A stretch of 27,052 nt of DNA from a virus (taxonomy: Duplodnaviria > Heunggongvirae > Uroviricota > Caudoviricetes): IMG/VR virus record IMGVR_UViG_2541047934_000004, positions 1-27,052 of that record; one strand, written 5' to 3'. Shown here piece after piece: positions 1 to 14,699 of this stretch. Under the pieces are notes generated by a model. It was not told where the DNA came from and searched no databases. It saw nothing but the letters and a program-made list of their open reading frames with translations. The position numbers and the translations under genes are program-made. The first letter of the stretch is position 1, and the number at the start of each line of letters is the position of its first letter.

Positions 1-255
1 ACCGGATATTGTTGTCGGAGATGTAAAGGCCTTGCACTGTCAAGAACATCGAGGCGTCTGTCTCAGGAAGTCACCGAGCGTTTTTATGTGTGCACGGAGC
101 CGGGTTGTGGTCTGGTGTTTAAAACGCTTCAGACCATCAACCGCTTCATTGTTCGCCCGGTCACGCCGGACGAACTGGCAGAAAGCCTGCATGAAAAACA
201 GGAACTGCCGCCAGTACGGTTAAAAACACAATCATATTCGCTGCGTCTGGAATGA
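1..255 (+). CDS. delta: Delta/Ogr-family zinc-finger late-gene activator, C-terminal part (5' end outside window)
   Basis: Frame 1 is open from position 1 to TGA at 253-255. Translation ...CCRRCKGLALSRTSRRLSQEVTERFYVCTEPGCGLVFKTLQTINRFIVRP... carries the Ogr signature (C-x2-C, RTSR, ERY/F, second Cys pair, R-x-IV-P). It lies immediately upstream of psu as in the P4 sid-delta-psu operon. The listed ORF 32..223 is in another frame. Confidence 0.7.
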   Translation, partial: TGYCCRRCKGLALSRTSRRLSQEVTERFYVCTEPGCGLVFKTLQTINRFIVRPVTPDELAESLHEKQELPPVRLKTQSYSLRLE

Positions 256-328
256 GGGCTGCCGGTTAACCCCGGCCGTCGCCGCACACCGTATTTTTAT
301 TCTTCAGCATGATGAGAAAGAGATAACG

Positions 329-901
329 ATGGAAAGCACAGCCTTACAGCAGGCCTTTGACACCTGTCAGAATAACAAAGCAGCATGGCTGCAACGCAAA
401 AATGAGCTGGCTGCGGCCGAACAGGAATATCTGCGGCTTCTGTCCGGGGAAGGCAGAAACGTCAGTCGCCTGGACGAATTACGCAATATTATCGAAGTCA
501 GAAAATGGCAGGTGAATCAGGCTGCCGGTCGTTATATTCGTTCGCATGAAGCCGTTCAGCACATCAGCATCCGCGACCGGCTGAATGATTTTATGCTGCA
601 GCACGGCACAGCACTGGCGGCCGCACTGGCACCGGAGCTGATGGGCTACAGTGAGCTGACGGCCATTGCCCGAAACTGTGCCATACAGCGTGCCACAGAT
701 GCCCTGCGTGAAGCCCTCCTGTCCTGGCTTGCGAAGGGTGAAAAAATTAATTATTCCGCACAGGATAGCGACATTTTAACGACCATCGGATTCAGGCCTG
801 ACGCGGCTTCGGTGGATGACAGCCGTGAAAAATTCACCCCTGCGCAGAACATGATTTTTTCGCGTAAAAGTGCGCAACTGGCATCACGTCAGTCTGTGTA
901 A
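329..901 (+). CDS. psu: Psu, polarity suppression / capsid decoration protein (P4-like)
   Basis: 190-aa ORF whose translation (MESTALQQAFDTCQNNKAAWLQRKNELAAAEQEYLRLL...) matches the P4 Psu protein as I recall it, at the expected length and position (after delta, before cos). Confidence 0.85.
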   Translation: MESTALQQAFDTCQNNKAAWLQRKNELAAAEQEYLRLLSGEGRNVSRLDELRNIIEVRKWQVNQAAGRYIRSHEAVQHISIRDRLNDFMLQHGTALAAALAPELMGYSELTAIARNCAIQRATDALREALLSWLAKGEKINYSAQDSDILTTIGFRPDAASVDDSREKFTPAQNMIFSRKSAQLASRQSV

Positions 902-935
902 AACTCCCCGAAAATCCGCCCGTTTTACTGAAAAA

Positions 936-975
936 AGCCATGCATCGATAAGGTGCATGGCTTTGCATGCGTTTT
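936..975 (+). terminator. Rho-independent terminator after psu
   Basis: Perfect 9-bp stem agccatgca / tgcatggct (936-944 and 954-962) with a 9-nt loop, followed by ttgcatgcgtttt. Confidence 0.5.
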
Positions 976-1064
976 CCTGCCTCATTTTCTGTAAACCGTG
1001 CCATTCCCGGCGCGGTCTGAGCGTGTCAGTACAACTGCATTAAAACCGCCCCGCAAAGCGGGCG

Positions 1065-1083
1065 GGCGAGGCGGGGAAAGCAC
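1065..1083. other. cos cohesive-end 19-mer of P2/P4 type (satellite packaging site)
   Basis: Exact string ggcgaggcggggaaagcac, which is the 19-nt cohesive-end sequence of P2/P4 as I recall it, at the position expected for P4 cos (between psu and the cargo/int region). Confidence 0.7.
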
Positions 1084-1110
1084 TGCGCGCAGTATAAGAA
1101 TTAAATAGGT

Positions 1111-1128
1111 ATGGATTTTAAAATCCAT
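1111..1128 (-). terminator. Perfect 18-bp palindrome overlapping the stop codon of the NACHT gene (possible terminator or protein-binding site)
   Basis: atggattttaaaatccat is a perfect palindrome. It overlaps the stop codon of the minus-strand 652-aa ORF and lies 28 nt from the cos 19-mer. No strong U-tract follows, so the terminator call is weak. Confidence 0.3.
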
Positions 1129-3076
1129 CAAGTAGCTGATTGATACCATTGCTCTCATCACAATTTATTTGCTCTAACTCAAATAAAGCACTGTCGTACT
1201 TTATTTGGGGAGTGTTTTCAAATGACAATAAAGATTCGATTAGTCTTATTTCTTTATCTTTATTTATGTCTTTAAGTGAGTCTAAAGTTAAATTGAATTT
1301 AACTTCGGGTTGTTTTCCTACTTCCATCATGATATTTGACTCCAACTCTGGATCAGTATTGAAGAATCGATGTGTCTTATGGAAATAACTAGGTTTTCTT
1401 GATTTTAAAATACTTAGTATATCCGACTTGATAGTGCTTTCCCGTGCTATCACAAGCCAATGGTTGGCAACCCCTGTGATGGTGGTAATGATGTGGGAGC
1501 CATTTTCACTTAGTTCATTAAAGGCTCTTAAGTCACCCTTGAAAAAATCATTTAGCAACTCATTTTCTTTATCTTTATCAAAAAGGTAAATTATTGAATT
1601 GCCGGCTAATGATATTTCAGCCTTGGTTTTTATAGTATCGCAATTAAATTGCGCGGTCTCATTTTTTAATTCTTCGTAAGATGATTTTAAGTCTAAAAGC
1701 AAGCATTTTATTATACTTGATCTGAAAGATGAGTAATCAATATCAGCACAAAGTGAAAATAAATTTCTGTGACGAATGGATTCAGGGCTGTAATATAGCT
1801 TTGTTAATATTTCTTTTTGGCGTTCTTTTGTGTCACGACAGATAAACATAGCTGCAAAATATTCCATTAATGATTTGTGTGACCAACGAATAATAGCGCC
1901 TTCTTTGACAAATAATGGAACGGTTTCAATTAAGTCCTGAATAAAAAGAGATGGTGAAGTTGATATTCCGGGAATTTTTGAAATGATATTTTGCAATGTT
2001 ATTTGCAGATCGTCTTTCGTAAACTCAATTTTACCTCCGTCTTTCAAACACCAAAAACCTAATCTCCTTAAGACCTGATGGAAGTCAGTGGAGTCTAGCT
2101 TAGAAAATTTTTCTCTAACATAACCAAGTTCTTTAGTTAAATCATGAGACTCATACAAAGCGTCAAATACTTGGCTATAAAATAACTCTCTTTTTCTTGG
2201 TATTATCGGTTTGAATTTATATGCACAAAATAATAATGAAACATAAAGAGGTGTGGATAAAAATTCATTTAGATTATGACCATTCTCCAGTCGTAATCCT
2301 TTAATTAATTGAGATGAAATAGGGCCACGTCCATCATATCGACGTAATAGATCATACGCTTGATTCGTTTCTAATGGGTTGATTTTAAATCTTGAGAAAC
2401 CATGTAGTTCTGATAAGAAATTATCATGACGAGAAGTTATAATTATTTTGCTTTCTGAGAAATTATTAGCAAAGGTACTTAGTAAATTTACGATCTTGGA
2501 TTTGAGTTGTTGTGGGATTTCATCTATGCCATCGAAAAGATAAATAAAAGGGATTTTTTTGAGGCAGTTGTCTGAAATGTCTTCTCCTAAACCAAGTTGA
2601 TGTTTCACCTGTAGCGCAAAATCATAATCTTTAGCACGTCGTAATTCAATGTATATTGGAATGTATTCCTTATTAGCGATGCAATCTAAAGCAATTCTTT
2701 TCATTAGGGTGGACTTACCCATTCCTGCTGAGTCAGTGATTAATATATGATTGAAATTATCTAATAAATCTGCATTGTCTTTTATTAGGCATGTGTATGG
2801 TTTTTTTTCATTATCGTAATAAATGCTCATTGGCTCATAAATATCTAGAAGCTCTACTGGAGTATTTTGAAAAGCTAAGGTATTCACAAGGGAGCATTGC
2901 CCTTTCACATTTGATAGGAAACGTTCAAGATTTTTATTCAAGAAGCGTGCTGCATGTACATCTATTAAATAATTACGAACACTACTTTCTATGATAGGTA
3001 ATATTTTATTCTTAATAACCTCCTTTGCCCATGGAAGGGATGCAGAGACTAATACATCAAGAGATACTGGTTGCAT
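1118..3076 (-). CDS. NACHT/STAND-family P-loop NTPase (652 aa), candidate anti-phage NLR-like protein in the P4 accessory hotspot
   Basis: Walker A ILITDSAGMGKSTLMKRIA (GMGKST encoded at 2725-2708), NACHT-type Walker B IPFIYLFDGIDEI (hhhhDGxDE) and a downstream IIITSR motif. About 110 aa precede the P-loop and about 330 aa follow the NTPase core. ATG at 3076 is 3 nt after the integrase stop. The gene is visibly AT-rich compared with flanking genes. Confidence 0.75.
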   Translation of the reverse strand: MQPVSLDVLVSASLPWAKEVIKNKILPIIESSVRNYLIDVHAARFLNKNLERFLSNVKGQCSLVNTLAFQNTPVELLDIYEPMSIYYDNEKKPYTCLIKDNADLLDNFNHILITDSAGMGKSTLMKRIALDCIANKEYIPIYIELRRAKDYDFALQVKHQLGLGEDISDNCLKKIPFIYLFDGIDEIPQQLKSKIVNLLSTFANNFSESKIIITSRHDNFLSELHGFSRFKINPLETNQAYDLLRRYDGRGPISSQLIKGLRLENGHNLNEFLSTPLYVSLLFCAYKFKPIIPRKRELFYSQVFDALYESHDLTKELGYVREKFSKLDSTDFHQVLRRLGFWCLKDGGKIEFTKDDLQITLQNIISKIPGISTSPSLFIQDLIETVPLFVKEGAIIRWSHKSLMEYFAAMFICRDTKERQKEILTKLYYSPESIRHRNLFSLCADIDYSSFRSSIIKCLLLDLKSSYEELKNETAQFNCDTIKTKAEISLAGNSIIYLFDKDKENELLNDFFKGDLRAFNELSENGSHIITTITGVANHWLVIARESTIKSDILSILKSRKPSYFHKTHRFFNTDPELESNIMMEVGKQPEVKFNLTLDSLKDINKDKEIRLIESLLSFENTPQIKYDSALFELEQINCDESNGINQLLDGF

Positions 3077-3079
3077 GAA

Positions 3080-4288
3080 TTATACCTTATTTTCTACGTT
3101 TAAATTTTTGACCTTAAGTCCCCACCAGTTCATTAAATCGATTCTGGTATGTAAATATGTTGAGCGGTTATATGCTCTTCTAACTTCGTTTTTGTCAGAG
3201 TGCGCTAAAGCAGCTTCAATGACATCTGGGTTAAAACCTCTTTCATTCATGGCTGTACTTGCTATTGAACGTAGACCATGAGCAACCAGCTTCCCGCCAT
3301 AACCAATACGTTTTAAAGCAGCATTAGCAGTTTGGCTATTCATTGGCTGTTTTGGGTCATTTCTACTGGGAAAAACATGTTCACGATGAGCACTGATTGG
3401 TTTCATTACCTCCAGAATCTCTATTGCCTGAGGTGATAAAGGAACAATGTGTTCCCGCTTAGCTTTCATCCGTTCGGCTGGAATAGTCCAGAGCTTTGCG
3501 TCAAGATCGATCTCTGCCCAACGAGCACCGGAAGCTTCAGAAGGGCGCACAAGGGTCAGAAGCTGCCACTCAATTAGACAGCGAGTCGAAACAGAGAGGT
3601 TCGACATCACCAAAGAGCGCATGAGTTTTGGTAATTCTTCAGGTCGTAGCGTTGGCATGTGTTGCTTTTTGGGTTTCTCAAATGCCATACCAATACCAGA
3701 TGCCGGGTTTGCATCAATCAGGCCAGTGTTGACGGCGTAGATCATGATTTCGTTAATACGCTGCACCAGTCGACGTACAGTCTCTAGCGCCCCACGTGCT
3801 TTGATTGGCTCAAGGGTTTCAACTAGTGTTCGGGCTTTGATTTGCTGGACAGGGATCTCCCCGATGACAGGGAATACGTCTTTTTCCAGTGACCGCCATA
3901 TATCTTTAGCGTAATCGGGTGTAACGCTTTTGCTTTTGAGCTGGAACCAGTTAGCGGCGACCGTTGAAAAAATACTGTCCAGAGCGATTTGCTGCTGTTC
4001 CTCTGCAACTTCGGCCTGAATTTGCGGGTCAATTCCGTTGGCTAACAAAGCAAGGTAATCCGCTCTTAACCGTCGAGCATCAGCAAGTGAAAGGGCGGGG
4101 AAAGCACCAAGCCCCATCATTGTCCGCTGTTTTGTTGCTGGACGTTGATAACGGAAACGCCACAACTTCTTACCGTTCGTTTTAACGAGCAGAAAAAGAC
4201 CATCGCCATCATGTAACGTTAGATCCTTTTCTAACGCTCTAGCGCGCAGAACTTCTGTGCTGGTCAGGGGGCGTGTCGTTCTTGCCAC
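3080..4288 (-). CDS. int: Tyrosine integrase, P4/CP4-57 (IntA) type
   Basis: 402-aa ORF, N-terminus MARTTRPLTSTEVLRARALEKDLTLHDGDGLFLLVKTNGKKLWRFRYQRP typical of P4-family integrases; C-terminal catalytic region with HGLR and a conserved Tyr context. GTG start with aaggag RBS. Directly downstream of a tmRNA 3'-end copy, as for ssrA-intA. Confidence 0.9.
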   Translation of the reverse strand: MARTTRPLTSTEVLRARALEKDLTLHDGDGLFLLVKTNGKKLWRFRYQRPATKQRTMMGLGAFPALSLADARRLRADYLALLANGIDPQIQAEVAEEQQQIALDSIFSTVAANWFQLKSKSVTPDYAKDIWRSLEKDVFPVIGEIPVQQIKARTLVETLEPIKARGALETVRRLVQRINEIMIYAVNTGLIDANPASGIGMAFEKPKKQHMPTLRPEELPKLMRSLVMSNLSVSTRCLIEWQLLTLVRPSEASGARWAEIDLDAKLWTIPAERMKAKREHIVPLSPQAIEILEVMKPISAHREHVFPSRNDPKQPMNSQTANAALKRIGYGGKLVAHGLRSIASTAMNERGFNPDVIEAALAHSDKNEVRRAYNRSTYLHTRIDLMNWWGLKVKNLNVENKV

Positions 4289-4310
4289 TGTGGCCGCTCC
4301 TTCATTAATT

Positions 4311-4358
4311 GGTATACGCGTTTAGGTAAACATCCTACCGTATACCTAAACGTATACC
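4311..4358. promoter_or_regulatory. Inverted/direct ggtatacg repeats between att core and int start (candidate integrase arm sites or int operator)
   Basis: ggtatacgcgtttaggta (4311-4328) is an inverted copy of tacctaaacgtatacc (4343-4358); cgtatacc also occurs at 4339-4346. Confidence 0.35.
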
Positions 4359-4400
4359 AATAATCACTGGATTTAGCTGGATATCCTCGGACAACGGTAG

Positions 4401-4436
4401 ACACAAAAAAGCCCGCAGAGCTTGTGCCATGCGGGC
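4401..4436 (-). terminator. Rho-independent terminator immediately 3' of the tmRNA 3'-end copy (minus strand)
   Basis: On the minus strand: stem gcccgc, 14-nt loop, stem gcgggc, then tttttt (complement of aaaaaa at 4405-4410). It lies about 35 nt downstream of the CCA end of the tmRNA segment. Confidence 0.55.
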
Positions 4437-4472
4437 TTTCAGGATTTCTCCGGACGTATCCGGAAGAGCAAG

Positions 4473-4517
4473 TGGTGGAGCTGGCGGGAGTTGAACCCGC
4501 GTCCGAAATTCCTACAT
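4473..4517 (-). other. ssrA: 45-nt copy of the ssrA (tmRNA) 3' end = attachment core (attL/attR junction); not a complete tmRNA gene
   Basis: Minus strand reads atgtaggaatttcggacgcgggttcaactcccgccagctccacca, matching the 3'-terminal T-arm/acceptor end of enterobacterial tmRNA as I recall it. Upstream of it (plus coordinates above 4517) the sequence does not continue as tmRNA, so only the terminal ~45 nt are present here. Confidence 0.7.
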
Positions 4518-4602: not shown

Positions 4603-5271
4603 TTAACTTTCTGCCGCCAAAGTGCCGCCACTGCATTTGTCGCCTAAACGCCTATTCGAAACGATTAATCTCTCGGCGATCTTAATCTTGGAGAGCTTAT
4701 CTAGGCAGATAAAGCATATTGCTACTCCCGATACCACAAAATAGCTGCTTAAACCAAAGTATTGCCAAGTAGTTAGATGGTTTATCTTCTCCATCATCTT
4801 AGCACTTACTACAACAGAATAACTGAAAGGAAGTGCTACGATGAGACTGCTCATGAAGTAAATTAGAGTTGTTATGATTTTTATTAATTTTCTATATATG
4901 CTGTATTTATATCTTTTTTTATTCCATGCGAATATTTCTTTATGGGTGGTAATGGAAATTAGACTTTGACATTTGGAATAATTATCTATATCGCTAACGG
5001 GGTTTGTTGTGTTGAGTAATATTAATCTTTGTTTTTTTGTCAATGTGTTATCTTTGGTTAATGCAGCAATGCCGTAATCTTCCGCCAGTTTTTTGAAGGT
5101 CGGATCTTCACTGCTTTTATACATCTGATATGAAAATTCGCTAATGTTTTTACGTGATGTGAATAGTTTATCTTTTTTATAAGTCCACCCTGTTTTAAGC
5201 CCTAATAAGGATATAATGGCAGATAGGGAAGGGAATAATATTTTTATAAGTAACTCTAGTTCGCTATTCAT
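4603..5271 (-). CDS. Hypothetical membrane protein (222 aa), AT-rich cargo ORF between helper-prophage int and the att junction
   Basis: ATG at 5271 lies 10 nt after the int stop, same strand. Hydrophobic segments LLIKILFPSLSAIISLLGL, IITTLIYFMSSLIVALPFSYSVVV and YFGLSSYFVVSGVAICFICL suggest about three TM helices. Strongly AT-rich except the last ~25 codons (4603-4690), which are G+C-richer. Confidence 0.6.
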   Translation of the reverse strand: MNSELELLIKILFPSLSAIISLLGLKTGWTYKKDKLFTSRKNISEFSYQMYKSSEDPTFKKLAEDYGIAALTKDNTLTKKQRLILLNTTNPVSDIDNYSKCQSLISITTHKEIFAWNKKRYKYSIYRKLIKIITTLIYFMSSLIVALPFSYSVVVSAKMMEKINHLTTWQYFGLSSYFVVSGVAICFICLDKLSKIKIAERLIVSNRRLGDKCSGGTLAAES

Positions 5272-9980: not shown

Positions 9981-12391
9981 GCCATGCCGATATGAACAAC
10001 TGCTGCGGCTTTAACGAGGCTGCCGCATCGTTCTCATGGAACAGCCCGAAAAAGGCCATTAACCCTTATCTGGACCCGGCGGAAGTTGCGCCGGTTTCTG
10101 CGCTTTCAAACCTGATCACTCTGTACGCTGCCGATAACGAGCAGGAACAGCTGCGCCGCGAGGCACTGAGTGATCAGGTCTGGGAGCGTTATTTCTTTAA
10201 TGAATCCCGTGATCCTGTCCAGCGCGAAATGGAGCAGGATAAGCTCATTAGTCGGGCAAAGCTGGCGCATGAGCAGCAGCGTTTTAATCCAGATATGGTC
10301 ATTCTGGCGGACGTCAATGCCCAGCCTTCCCATATCAGCAAGCCGCTGATGCAACGTATTGAATACTTCAGCAGCCTGGGCAGGCCAAAGGCTTATTCCC
10401 GCTATTTGCGTGAGACGATTAAGCCATGTCTGGAACGACTGGAGCATGTACGCGACAGTCAGCTATCCGCTTCTTTTCGCTTTATGGCAAGCCATGAAGG
10501 GCTGGATGGCCTGCTTATCCTGCCTGAAATGAGTCAGGATCAGGTGAAGCGCCTGTCTACCCTTGTCGCTGCGCATATGAGCATGTGCCTTGATGCAGCT
10601 TGTGGTGATTTGTATGCCACCGATGACGTTAAGCCAGAAGAAATCCGCAAGACATGGGAAAAGGTGGCAGCGGAAACCCTGCGTCTGGATGTTATCCCGC
10701 CTGCGTTTGAGCAACTCCGTCGGAAAAGAAACCGCCGTAAACCCGTGCCCTATGAACTCATTCCGGGTTCGCTGGCGCGTATGTTGTGCGCTGACTGGTG
10801 GTACCGGAAATTATGGAAGATGCGTTGCGAATGGCGGGAAGAGCAGTTGCGCGCTGTCTGCCTGGTCAGCAAAAAAGCATCTCCTTATGTCAGCTATGAA
10901 GCCGTGATGCATAAACGTGAGCAGCGCCGTAAGTCGCTGGAGTTTTTCCGTTCTCATGAACTGGTGAACGAAGACGGCGACACGCTGGACATGGAGGATG
11001 TGGTAAACGCCAGCAGCAGCAACCCTGCGCATCGCCGCAATGAGATGATGGCCTGTGTTAAAGGTCTGGAACTTATCGCGGAAATGCGCGGTGACTGCGC
11101 CGTTTTCTACACCATCACCTGTCCGTCACGTTTCCATTCCACGCTAAATAACGGCAGACCCAACCCGAACTGGACAAATGCGACGGTAAGACAAAGCAGT
11201 GATTATTTGGTCGGCATGTTTGCTGCATTTCGTAAGGCGATGCACAAAGCCGGATTGCGCTGGTATGGCGTGCGGGTGGCTGAGCCGCATCATGACGGTA
11301 CAGTTCACTGGCACCTGTTGTGTTTTATGCGCAAAAAAGACCGCCGCGCCATCACTGCATTACTGCGTAAGTTTGCCATCCGTGAAGACCGCGAGGAGCT
11401 GGGCAATAACACGGGGCCGCGCTTTAAGTCTGAGTTGATTAACCCGCGCAAAGGAACGCCGACAAGCTACATCGCGAAATATATCAGTAAGAACATTGAC
11501 GGGCGTGGTCTGGCTGGCGAGATCAGCAAGGAAACGGGTAAATCCCTGCGTGATAACGCTGAATACGTGAATGCCTGGGCGTCTCTGCATCGTGTTCAGC
11601 AATTCCGCTTCTTTGGCATTCCGGGGCGTCAGGCTTACCGTGAACTGCGATTGCTGGCTGGTCAGGCGGCAAGGCAACAGGGTGACAAAAAAGCAGGTGC
11701 GCCGGTACTGGATAACCCGCGCCTTGATGCAATCCTGGCTGCTGCTGATGCTGGTTGTTTTGCCACCTACATCATGAAGCAGGGCGGCGTACTGGTTCCC
11801 CGTAAATATCACCTTATCAGAACTGCTTATGAAATCAACGAAGAGCCGACCGCCTATGGCGATCACGGCATTCGTATTTATGGCATCTGGTCACCTATTG
11901 CAGAGGGCAAGATCTGCACTCATGCCGTGAAGTGGAAAATGGTTCGTAAGGCCGTTGACGTTCAGGAGGCGGCAGCCGACCAGGGCGCTTGCGCCCCTTG
12001 GACTCGTGGCAATAACTGTCCCCTTGCTGAAAATTTGAACCAACAGGAGAAAGATAAATCAGCTGATGGGGACCCCAGAACGGACATTACCAGCATGGAT
12101 GACAAGGAGTTGCACGATTACCTGCACAGTATGAGCAAAAAAGAGCGCCGGGAACTGGCAGCAAGGTTACGCCTGGTGAAACCGAAACGGCGTAAAGACT
12201 ACAAACAGCGAATTACAGACCATCAGCGACTGCAGCTCGTGTATGAGCTGAAGTCCAGAGGATTTGATGGCAGCGAGAAAGAGGTCGATTTACTCCTTCG
12301 CGGAGGCAGTATTCCGTCAGGAGCAGGCCTGCGTATCTTCTATCGGAACCAGCGTTTGCAGGAAGATGATCAGTGGCGGAACCTGTATTAA
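9977..12391 (+). CDS. A: Replication initiation protein A (P2 gpA / 186 RepA family, rolling-circle nickase)
   Basis: 804-aa ORF at the gpA position. Contains an HUH-like motif (TVHWHLLCF) and a tyrosine-rich motif [12 protein letters not shown] typical of rolling-circle initiators. Start overlaps dam stop. Confidence 0.85.
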
Positions 12392-13289: not shown

Positions 13290-14699
13290 ATGTCTTTTCT
13301 TGATATAAAAAAAATGAGTAAAGAGAGGTTTAATGCTTTTGTTGATTGGACCAGAATGCCAAATACTGAACTTTTAGGCTATGAGTTTGAGTGGTACTGT
13401 AGTCCGAGAGAGTTCCTGCTAGGGGCACTATTATTGGATCAAATCGATGAAGATTATAGCGGTATTGTTTTAGCAAGAGACTTAAGTGGGAGATATAGAT
13501 GTATTGACCTATTTACTAGTGTTTCAGAAATGAATTCTGCACGAGCAAAACTAAAGAAATTAATGCGGAAGCATACTAAATTAAACGTAAAAGTATTTCC
13601 ACAAGGTGATGAAACTTATAAAGCAATGGATTTATTCACACCTATAGTTACACCAGATAAACTTCATCATCATTTTTCATTATTTGGTAAATACGCGAAC
13701 TGGTCGCCTGCAACAGGGATAATCAAGGAAATGATGAATCATTTTGAGGATGTCGACGGGAATTTTATAGAGCAGTTTCAGACAACAGGTTTTGATGCCC
13801 GGCTATGGGAGTTATATCTTTTCGCATATTTACGAGAGGAACACTTTTGGCTAGATAGGCAGTTTAATGCCCCTGATTATGTGGCACGTAAGTATGGTAA
13901 TACTATTTGCATTGAAGCTGTAACGGTTAATCCAACAGGGAATGATATTAATCAATCATCTGAAATGCTATCAGAACCTAAAAGTAAGGAAGAATTGCTA
14001 GAGAAAATAGAGAATTATATGCCGATTAAATTTGGAAGTTCTCTCTATTCTAAACTGAAAAAGAAAACTCGATACTGGGATCTAGAACATGTTAAGGGGA
14101 ATCCTTTAATTTTCGCAATTGCTGATTTTCATGAACCAAACTCTATGATTTGGTCCCATAGTGCACTTTGGCAGTATCTTTATGGTATTCGCTATGAGCA
14201 TGTTAAATCTGAAGATGGATGTTACAGTTTAGCAACTAAGAAAATTATATCGCATCAATTTGAGAAAAAGGAAATTCCTTCAGGCTTTTTCTTCTTGGAT
14301 GAGTCTGAAAATATTTCGGCCGTCCTTAGTTCTAATAGTGGTACTATATCGAAGTTTAATCGGATGGGAAAACTGGCTGGTTTTGGAAGAAGTGACCTTA
14401 GATTATTTAGGAGTGGTTACTGCCATGATCATGACCCAGAGGCATTATATCCAGCAGCATTTAGTTTTGAAGTGAAAGAAGGCGATATTACAGAAACATG
14501 GGCAGAAGGTTTAAATATGTATCATAATCCTAATGCTAAATATCCTGTAGATCCTGATTTATTTCCTTCAATAGCACATCATTTTCTTGAAAATGGAGAG
14601 GTTAAAAGTATAGTTCCTGACTTTCATCCGTATACATCTATTACCATAAATGTCTTAACTCAAAATAATAAAAAACAAAAAATCAGAGTAGATGAGTAA
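13290..14699 (+). CDS. Hypothetical protein (469 aa), AT-rich cargo gene between cos and portal gene; candidate novel anti-phage or accessory function
   Basis: Long ORF with gagg RBS 7 nt upstream of ATG, own AT-rich promoter-like leader, convergent with Q. No P-loop, HNH, HTH or other motif I can recognise by eye. Composition is clearly more AT-rich than the neighbouring phage genes. Confidence 0.75.
   Translation: MSFLDIKKMSKERFNAFVDWTRMPNTELLGYEFEWYCSPREFLLGALLLDQIDEDYSGIVLARDLSGRYRCIDLFTSVSEMNSARAKLKKLMRKHTKLNVKVFPQGDETYKAMDLFTPIVTPDKLHHHFSLFGKYANWSPATGIIKEMMNHFEDVDGNFIEQFQTTGFDARLWELYLFAYLREEHFWLDRQFNAPDYVARKYGNTICIEAVTVNPTGNDINQSSEMLSEPKSKEELLEKIENYMPIKFGSSLYSKLKKKTRYWDLEHVKGNPLIFAIADFHEPNSMIWSHSALWQYLYGIRYEHVKSEDGCYSLATKKIISHQFEKKEIPSGFFFLDESENISAVLSSNSGTISKFNRMGKLAGFGRSDLRLFRSGYCHDHDPEALYPAAFSFEVKEGDITETWAEGLNMYHNPNAKYPVDPDLFPSIAHHFLENGEVKSIVPDFHPYTSITINVLTQNNKKQKIRVDE

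Follow-up and report, generated by a model that had tools for sequence, protein, structure and literature searches.

What protein occupies the cargo position between psu and int of the P4-like satellite at one end of IMG/VR record IMGVR_UViG_2541047934_000004, and how might it act? The whole stretch of DNA that was analysed, 27,052 nucleotides (nt) long, is hereafter called the window. As first described, an open reading frame (ORF) of 652 amino acids (aa) lies on its minus strand at 1118..3076, stop codon included, and a preliminary description had seen in its product a NACHT-type NTPase and a candidate defence protein. The product is identical to that of the RefSeq coding sequence (CDS) WP_001183326.1, which is annotated in complete Escherichia coli genomes, and WP_001183326.1 is bNACHT22, a clade-14 protein from E. 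coli ECOR36 (Kibby et al., bioRxiv 10.1101/2022.07.19.500537, Tables S1 and S2). The clade-14 placement used here is taken from Table S1 of that work through the identical accession, which the same table annotates as 'NACHT 100..477' alone. The window protein matches all 399 bNACHT22 residues printed in Table S2. Moreover, the first 399 nt of the published bNACHT22 clone are an exact copy of the window read from 4472 to 4074, and the clone as a whole corresponds to window 4472..861, which runs from the int promoter region through int, bNACHT22 and cos into the end of psu. It is a near-certainty that the window gene is bNACHT22.

The same accession is found in the table of P4 hotspot systems of Rousset et al. 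(2022, PMC9122126), in which at least 24 entries list WP_001183326 as a one-gene 'NACHT' system between psu and int. The novelty implied by the preliminary description is therefore lost: the gene, its classification, its context and the experiment proposed for it are all already published. That experiment consisted of cloning int-NACHT, or the NACHT gene alone, and challenging the resulting strains with phages; both have been done, with bNACHT22 and bNACHT24 respectively, and no defence phenotype was accepted for either. An anti-phage function of bNACHT22 is hence something that I infer rather than demonstrate, and the argument for it starts from the parts of the protein, which are the following.

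1118..3076, minus strand: bNACHT22 coding sequence, 652 aa, WP_001183326.1 (ORF and identity to an annotated CDS; clade 14 in Kibby Tables S1 and S2)
2891..3076, minus strand: helical extension at the N-terminus (residues 1-62; first residues MQPVSLD), a candidate for a death-effector segment by analogy with the MDPIT extension of bNACHT11 (AlphaFold2 helices)
1742..2779, minus strand: NACHT module (nucleotide-binding domain, helical domain, winged helix, second helical domain), about residues 100-445 (Pfam, Foldseek, HHalign)
2708..2725, minus strand: Walker A/P-loop GMGKST, residues 118-123, with K121 (sequence; K121 aligns with K115 of bNACHT11)
2519..2545, minus strand: Walker B IYLFDGIDE, residues 178-186 (sequence; D182, G183, D185 and E186 invariant)
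1163..1741, minus strand: SNaCT5 domain, residues 446-638, presumed to be phage-sensing (Pfam SNaCT5)
1121..1162, minus strand: conserved C-terminal tail, residues 639-652, ...CDESNGINQLLDGF (near-invariant D640, S642, N643, G644 and L648)

The motifs singled out in the preliminary description are all present in this ORF, which is as AT-rich as had been stated (G+C content of 0.327, compared to 0.467 for int and 0.532 for psu). GMGKST occupies residues 118-123, FDGIDE residues 181-186 and TSR residues 214-216; K121, D182, G183, D185, E186 and R216 are invariant across 60 diverse homologues. The protein thus carries the Walker A motif, the Walker B motif and the sensor-1 arginine by which a NACHT NTPase is recognised, and they align with the corresponding motifs of bNACHT01, bNACHT02, bNACHT11, bNACHT12 and bNACHT23. 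Pfam NACHT (PF05729) matches residues 113-247 with a score of 34.5 bits against a cut-off of 26.7. The structure of bNACHT22 was confidently modelled with AlphaFold2 from 60 homologues, with a mean predicted local distance difference test (pLDDT) score of 85, and the top 40 PDB matches given by Foldseek are all chains of NLRC4, NLRP3, NOD2, NAIP or other NLRP-family proteins. Since the best matches are NLRC4, NLRP3, NOD2 and NAIP5 (E values of 9.3e-12 to 1e-8 over about 450 aligned columns), the NTPase core is a true NACHT module, which makes bNACHT22 a STAND NTPase of the NACHT clade. Assignment to a non-STAND P-loop family, which the preliminary description had named as an outcome incompatible with its reading, was rejected by the Pfam NACHT score together with the NLR fold matches. 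Sequence searches of the PDB yielded nothing with the single bNACHT22 protein and only weak matches to NLRC4 and NLRP1 with the family profile. Scanning bNACHT22 with PADLOC v2.0.0 and NCBIfam gave no meaningful match, a silence that is uninformative on function because these libraries hold no model for bNACHTs of this type.

The preliminary description had also counted about 330 aa of unrecognised C-terminal sequence, and on this point it has to be amended, although its NACHT identification stands. The C-terminal stretch consists of about 195 aa belonging to the helical and winged-helix subdomains of the NACHT module, down to about residue 445, and of about 200 aa that form SNaCT5 and the conserved tail. 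Pfam SNaCT5 is matched by residues 446-638 with 31.0 bits, a narrow margin over the cut-off of 27. The SNaCT5 region has the highest sequence entropy of the protein (2.64, against 1.09-1.53 elsewhere) and the highest ratio of nonsynonymous to synonymous substitution rates (dN/dS; 0.16 against 0.03). SNaCT5 of bNACHT22 is a fast-evolving domain, as SNaCT domains were described to be by Kibby et al. (bioRxiv 10.1101/2022.07.19.500537). It has no fold match in the PDB set that was searched, a set that lacks the bNACHT11 structure 9ORF. Despite the hypervariable body of SNaCT5, the tail that follows it is conserved within the family and ends in NQLLDGF (LLxGF). At the other end of the protein, no Pfam domain was found in residues 1-100; the AlphaFold2 model places helices at residues 6-12, 14-32 and 40-62, followed by two short strands that lead into the nucleotide-binding domain. 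The very start is conserved in the homologues as MQPV[ST]L[DE] or LETITLE, the former being kept in Escherichia, Enterobacter, Citrobacter, Klebsiella, Arsenophonus and Rahnella. The flanking domains, held at first to be unassignable, can therefore be named: SNaCT5 at the C-terminus and the clade-14 extension at the N-terminus.

Homologues of full length (about 650 aa) occur in many Gammaproteobacteria, across the Enterobacterales and beyond, and the dN/dS value of bNACHT22 relative to its Enterobacter orthologue is 0.08, so that the ORF at 1118..3076 is not a chance ORF. The gene is under strong purifying selection and all its catalytic residues are intact. Of 5426 complete E. coli genomes, 25 have it, each time as a chromosomal single copy of at least 99.7% identity. 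In Enterobacter, Klebsiella, Pectobacterium and Rahnella, orthologues of 84-56% identity are found directly downstream of a P4-type int, and homologues that are 41-42% identical are found outside satellites, in Proteus and Pseudomonas chromosomes.

A scheme for the working of such a protein is provided by bNACHT11 of Klebsiella pneumoniae (WP_114260439.1; structure, PDB 9ORF), as described by Robbins et al. (bioRxiv 10.1101/2024.12.17.629029). The bNACHT11 SNaCT domain binds several unrelated phage proteins by beta-augmentation, and ATP-bound protomers assemble into a heptameric wheel. Assembly needs the seven C-terminal residues, which dock into the SNaCT of the adjacent protomer: deletion of this tail, LKEILGF, abolishes both oligomerisation and defence. 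An N-terminal extension of about 45 aa, which starts with MDPIT, is required for cell death by plasmolysis, and the D2A;P3A variant loses function.

bNACHT22 (652 aa) and bNACHT11 (639 aa) share the clade-14 architecture. They are 27% identical over 366 aa by BLASTP (E = 2e-28), and HHalign aligns the profiles of the two families over residues 39-465 with a probability of 99.95%, K121 and R216 of bNACHT22 being aligned with the ATP-contacting K115 and R214 of bNACHT11. The bNACHT22 tail, ...NQLLDGF, resembles the LKEILGF of bNACHT11, both ending in L-x-G-F. Likewise, the N-terminus of bNACHT22, MQPVSLDVLVSASLPWAKEVI, aligns without gaps with MDPITNEILKIGIGETAKLIF of bNACHT11. A pattern M-[D/Q]-P-[I/V]-[T/S] would accommodate MQPVS of bNACHT22 and MDPIT of bNACHT11 (compare MDPIT/MEPIS), P3 being kept and the I/V and T/S exchanges being conservative.

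I therefore propose, with a probability that I put at roughly 60%, that bNACHT22 is a clade-14 bacterial NLR-related protein working by a scheme of the bNACHT11 type. In the lysogen, transcription of the gene would start at the int promoter and take in int as well, and the protein would rest as an inactive monomer until SNaCT5 binds one or more phage proteins. Binding would lead to ATP-dependent oligomerisation into a ring, in which the NACHT interface and the docked C-terminal tail would join the protomers. Such a ring would cluster the N-terminal extensions, and the clustered extensions would disturb the inner membrane or the osmotic balance, so that the cell would die before phage release (abortive infection). 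The scheme is drawn by analogy with bNACHT11, its sensing step and ligand being inference.

Several observations weigh against the proposal, beginning with the published bNACHT phage screen, all statements on which are taken here from the 2022 Kibby preprint and its tables (bioRxiv 10.1101/2022.07.19.500537). In that screen, int and bNACHT22 were cloned together as a predicted two-gene operon, behind their native upstream DNA, and challenged with ten phages (T2-T7, lambda-vir, M13, MS2 and Qbeta); the 'Phage Defense' cell of bNACHT22 is empty, and a drop in T3 titre with bNACHT22 was distrusted by the authors themselves. The cell is also empty for bNACHT24 from ECOR35, which was cloned alone behind unrelated sequence and is identical to bNACHT22 over the 399 residues printed in the Kibby table. 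The same is true, for the ten phages, of the Klebsiella relative bNACHT04, the N-terminal 60 residues of which are the same as those of P0006, a protein 65% identical to the window protein. No mention of bNACHT22, bNACHT24 or bNACHT04 was found in the later literature that was searched. At the level of the protein, position 2 is Gln in bNACHT22, in contrast to the functionally required Asp of bNACHT11, and the ungapped profile similarity between the two N-termini (z = 2.7, about 0.6% of shuffles) is suggestive only; the HHalign alignment of the two profiles does not reach the N-terminal segment, and the first 40 columns taken alone are uninformative. Similarly, the SNaCT regions of the two families are not aligned by HHalign, which ends at residue 465, and no Pfam SNaCT model matched bNACHT11 itself; SNaCT5 is found in bNACHT22 but SNaCT1 in P0190, a relative (46% identical). 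Sensing by beta-augmentation is for these reasons an extrapolation in the case of bNACHT22.

The lack of accepted defence by bNACHT04, bNACHT22 and bNACHT24 against the ten phages could be taken to mean that the bNACHT22 allele, though intact, is in effect inactive or acts on a very narrow spectrum and is carried along with the satellite, for instance because the death motif is weakened by its Gln-2 or because Pint provides too little expression. The loss of bNACHT11 function upon the D2A;P3A exchange would fit this explanation, as would the rarity of the gene among complete E. coli genomes. I nevertheless find it unlikely, given a dN/dS of 0.08 and intact catalytic residues. The start MQPV[ST]L[DE], kept in six genera, points to a variant that works and not to decay; SNaCT changes more rapidly than other parts of the protein, which would be expected of a sensor in conflict, and a panel of ten phages is small.

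Another possibility is that bNACHT22 is a functional anti-phage NLR that senses or kills in a manner unlike bNACHT11, for example by detecting a perturbed host factor, as bNACHT25 does in the case of DnaJ, or by killing through a partner protein. No homology to the bNACHT11 SNaCT was detected for SNaCT5, nor any fold match in the PDB set; the match of the N-terminal motifs is weak, and indirect sensing is used by other bNACHTs according to the account in PMC12169576. Killing through a partner, however, sits badly with a hotspot that contains no partner gene, bNACHT22 being its sole cargo, and the architecture, the length, the N-terminal helix and the C-terminal tail all parallel those of bNACHT11; a different mode of action thus seems improbable to me. 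As for the tight coupling to int, it would be explained if bNACHT22 served the life cycle of the satellite itself, by sensing proteins of the helper (P2-like) or of competitor satellites so as to time or bias propagation. The gene is always directly downstream of a P4-type int in the orthologous loci, and the satellite adjoins a P2-like prophage in the window and in a Klebsiella locus. Yet the psu-int interval is a general swap site that accommodates many unrelated defence systems, the Proteus and Pseudomonas homologues reside outside satellites, and no evidence ties any bNACHT to satellite regulation, all of which makes such a role very improbable.

Returning to the scheme of the bNACHT11 type, I suggest, tentatively, that SNaCT5 of bNACHT22 may recognise proteins of phages outside the ten-phage panel (for example, T3-like podophages, temperate phages other than P2, or rival satellites) and that the protein may signal through a Gln-2 variant of the death motif. 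If this were true, the trigger would be the first ligand for the SNaCT5 family. It would also explain why strong purifying selection acts on an apparently inactive gene that, in no fewer than five genera, would share an operon with the int of P4-like satellites targeting ssrA. Purifying selection acts on the conserved subfamily of bNACHT04, bNACHT22 and bNACHT24, the members of which go with satellite integrases, yet the subfamily has no accepted protection to its credit. SNaCT5 is unrelated in sequence to the only SNaCT with known ligands, and knowledge of its trigger would bring a second SNaCT family under the bNACHT11 model.

The surroundings of bNACHT22 contain the following features.

1..255, plus strand: 3' part of the satellite delta (ogr/Delta-like) gene, cut by the window edge (annotated CDS at 11755-12255 of locus L001, of which position 12001 is window position 1)
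329..901, plus strand: psu (polarity suppression protein), a marker gene of P4-like satellites (Pfam Psu, E = 1.2e-87)
1046..1065, minus strand: terminator-like GC-rich hairpin and T-run about 50 nt past the bNACHT22 stop codon, candidate (consensus scan)
1065..1083, plus strand: P2/P4 cos cohesive-end sequence, presumed, far border of the hotspot (single exact 19-nt match)
3077..3079, minus strand: TTC spacer between the int stop codon and the bNACHT22 ATG (sequence)
3080..4288, minus strand: P4-type tyrosine integrase, 402 aa, first gene of a presumed operon with bNACHT22 (Pfam Arm-DNA-bind_3, Phage_int_M and Phage_integrase; annotated integrase in E. coli genomes)
4289..4472, minus strand: region upstream of int, presumed Pint, part of the Kibby bNACHT22 clone (first base of the clone is window 4472)
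4473..4517, minus strand: 3'-end fragment of ssrA (tmRNA) and attachment (att) core, common to the satellite and the P2-like prophage (tmRNA match and homology ends)

The 19-nt sequence GGCGAGGCGGGGAAAGCAC has one exact copy in the window, at 1065-1083, where 0 chance matches are expected. I take it to be the P2/P4 cos. Only 34 nt separate it from the bNACHT22 stop codon, and bNACHT22 is therefore the sole cargo gene of the psu-cos-int interval. The claim that the gene is the only cargo of this hotspot in a P4-like satellite is thus borne out, with psu, cos and int all located. A full P4-like satellite with the same gene, placed directly beside ssrA, is present in E. coli EPSSH018, in the order primase-helicase, DUF5375, derepression protein, Icd-like protein, helix-turn-helix regulator, sid-like gene, delta, psu, NACHT and int. 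As a cargo of the P4 hotspot, bNACHT22 is flanked by psu/cos on one side and int on the other, and the full set of satellite genes is seen in EPSSH018. The hairpin at 1046..1065 is listed as a candidate only, because terminator-like sites are no more numerous in this region than in shuffled sequence; another terminator-like hairpin lies at 4409-4423, downstream of the ssrA 3' fragment.

The spacing of three nt between the int stop codon and the bNACHT22 start codon was confirmed: the int TAA is at 3082-3080, the TTC spacer at 3079-3077 and the ATG at 3076-3074. A Shine-Dalgarno-like AAGG is found within the last int codons. Since a scan of the minus strand from the bNACHT22 gene to the middle of int gave no sigma-70-like site, the simplest reading is that, in the lysogen, one transcript started at the int promoter would cover int and bNACHT22. 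This agrees with the co-transcription suggested at the outset, with int-NACHT gaps of only 10 nt in Enterobacter, 9 nt in Klebsiella, 24 nt in Pectobacterium and 2 nt in Rahnella, and with the operon predicted by Kibby et al. An independent promoter in the int-NACHT spacer was considered and rejected, the spacer being 3 nt long and the scan of the 3' part of int having yielded no promoter-like site. As regards the upstream DNA of the other clone, that of bNACHT24 (ECOR35) has about 75 nt unrelated to the int of the window, upstream of a conserved AATAAGGTATAATTC-ATG (window ~3060-3090). This stretch may be the end of an insertion sequence (IS). IS1 or IS21 insertions are also found in the int-bNACHT22 locus of several complete genomes, and the presumed operon has therefore been repeatedly disrupted by IS elements.

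On the far side of int, the last 32 nt of tmRNA are matched exactly at 4473-4504. Homology to genomes that carry the satellite only stops at 4517, and homology to a genome that carries the prophage only begins at 4480. ARAGORN found no tmRNA in the window, because no more of ssrA is present there than its final 30-45 nt; int adjoins a complete ssrA gene in other genomes. The int genes of the Pectobacterium and Rahnella loci are found just downstream of smpB, the place expected for ssrA.

Comparison of the orthologous loci bears on the history of this cargo. The integrase is conserved up to ...MNWWG, after which its last 10-20 codons differ from locus to locus and are AT-rich (window 3080-3130, minus strand; loci L003, L005, L006 and L008), and the recombination boundary of the hotspot therefore appears to lie within the last int codons, and not after the stop codon. 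Between E. coli and Klebsiella, dN is 0.087 for int as opposed to 0.288 for the NACHT gene, for which reason the NACHT cargo is, judged from these sequence distances, older than its integrase or more often exchanged. Beyond the Proteobacteria, gp84 of the temperate Clostridium difficile phage CDMH1 (HG531805.1 / NC_024144.1, 52391-53629), a 'putative signalling/NTPase protein', is 37% identical to residues 64-464 of bNACHT22 (E = 1e-68), and is nearer to bNACHT22 than bNACHT11 is. This NACHT subtype is therefore common to mobile elements of Firmicutes and Proteobacteria.

The remainder of the window, 4480-27052, is a P2-like prophage that is 100% identical to one in E. coli MSB1_4I and comprises genes for int, CI, Cox-side regulators, the replication endonuclease gpA, portal, terminase, capsid, lysis and tail. 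Satellite and prophage are joined head-to-tail via their shared ssrA-derived att core, 4480-4517, a junction that was found in no complete RefSeq E. coli genome of the collection searched. The Klebsiella locus L005 has a P2-like int and CI beside a P4-type int-bNACHT arrangement, as in the window. Between gpA and the portal gene gpQ, a P2 hotspot described by Rousset et al. (PMC9122126), an AT-rich gene of 469 aa lies at 13290-14699 on the plus strand; it is matched by PADLOC PD-T7-1 (E = 1.3e-196) and by no Pfam model, and the helper-type prophage beside the satellite therefore has a known defence gene of its own. Minus-strand positions 4603-5271, flanked by the att core and the P2-like integrase, hold an AT-rich ORF of 222 aa (about 36% G+C), the RefSeq hypothetical protein WP_001083625.1; it gave no significant family match and a weak PADLOC match to 1TM-TIR (E = 0.012). 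At the same position after the P2-like int, L005 has an unannotated gene of 327 aa with no Pfam match. The presence of differing genes at this position suggests that it may be another variable cargo slot.

Compared to the locus of Kibby et al., the window has the same gene, without differences, in the same flanking DNA, with the same int-NACHT order and the same clade-14 assignment; in the window, the satellite adjoins a P2-like prophage and not directly a full ssrA gene. The psu-int hotspot of Rousset et al. (2022, PMC9122126) corresponds to it in position, between psu/cos and int, and in accession; validated cargoes of that hotspot include TIR-NLR, PARIS and others, and the only places of that paper with the word 'NACHT' are supplementary files, namely those with the list of hotspot contents, HHpred output for other systems and the references. 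bNACHT11 gives protection from T2, T4 and T6, and its triggers are known, neither of which holds for bNACHT22. Avs/AVAST proteins belong to the same STAND superfamily and follow the same sensor-NTPase-effector logic, but bNACHT22 has neither their TPR-like sensor repeats nor a nuclease or other enzymatic effector. Membership of Avs/AVAST was rejected, the best PADLOC match being Avs2 with an E value of 0.002 and 13.8 bits, over just 83 residues round the P-loop. With the eukaryotic proteins NLRC4, NLRP3, NOD2 and NAIP5, the identity is 13-18%; bNACHT22 is devoid of leucine-rich repeats (LRRs), CARD and PYD, and has a SNaCT of about 200 aa in place of their repeat sensor and a helical extension of about 60 aa in place of their adaptor domain. 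What bNACHT22 has in common with these eukaryotic NLRs is the fold formed by the nucleotide-binding, helical and winged-helix domains, together with the Walker A, Walker B and sensor motifs.

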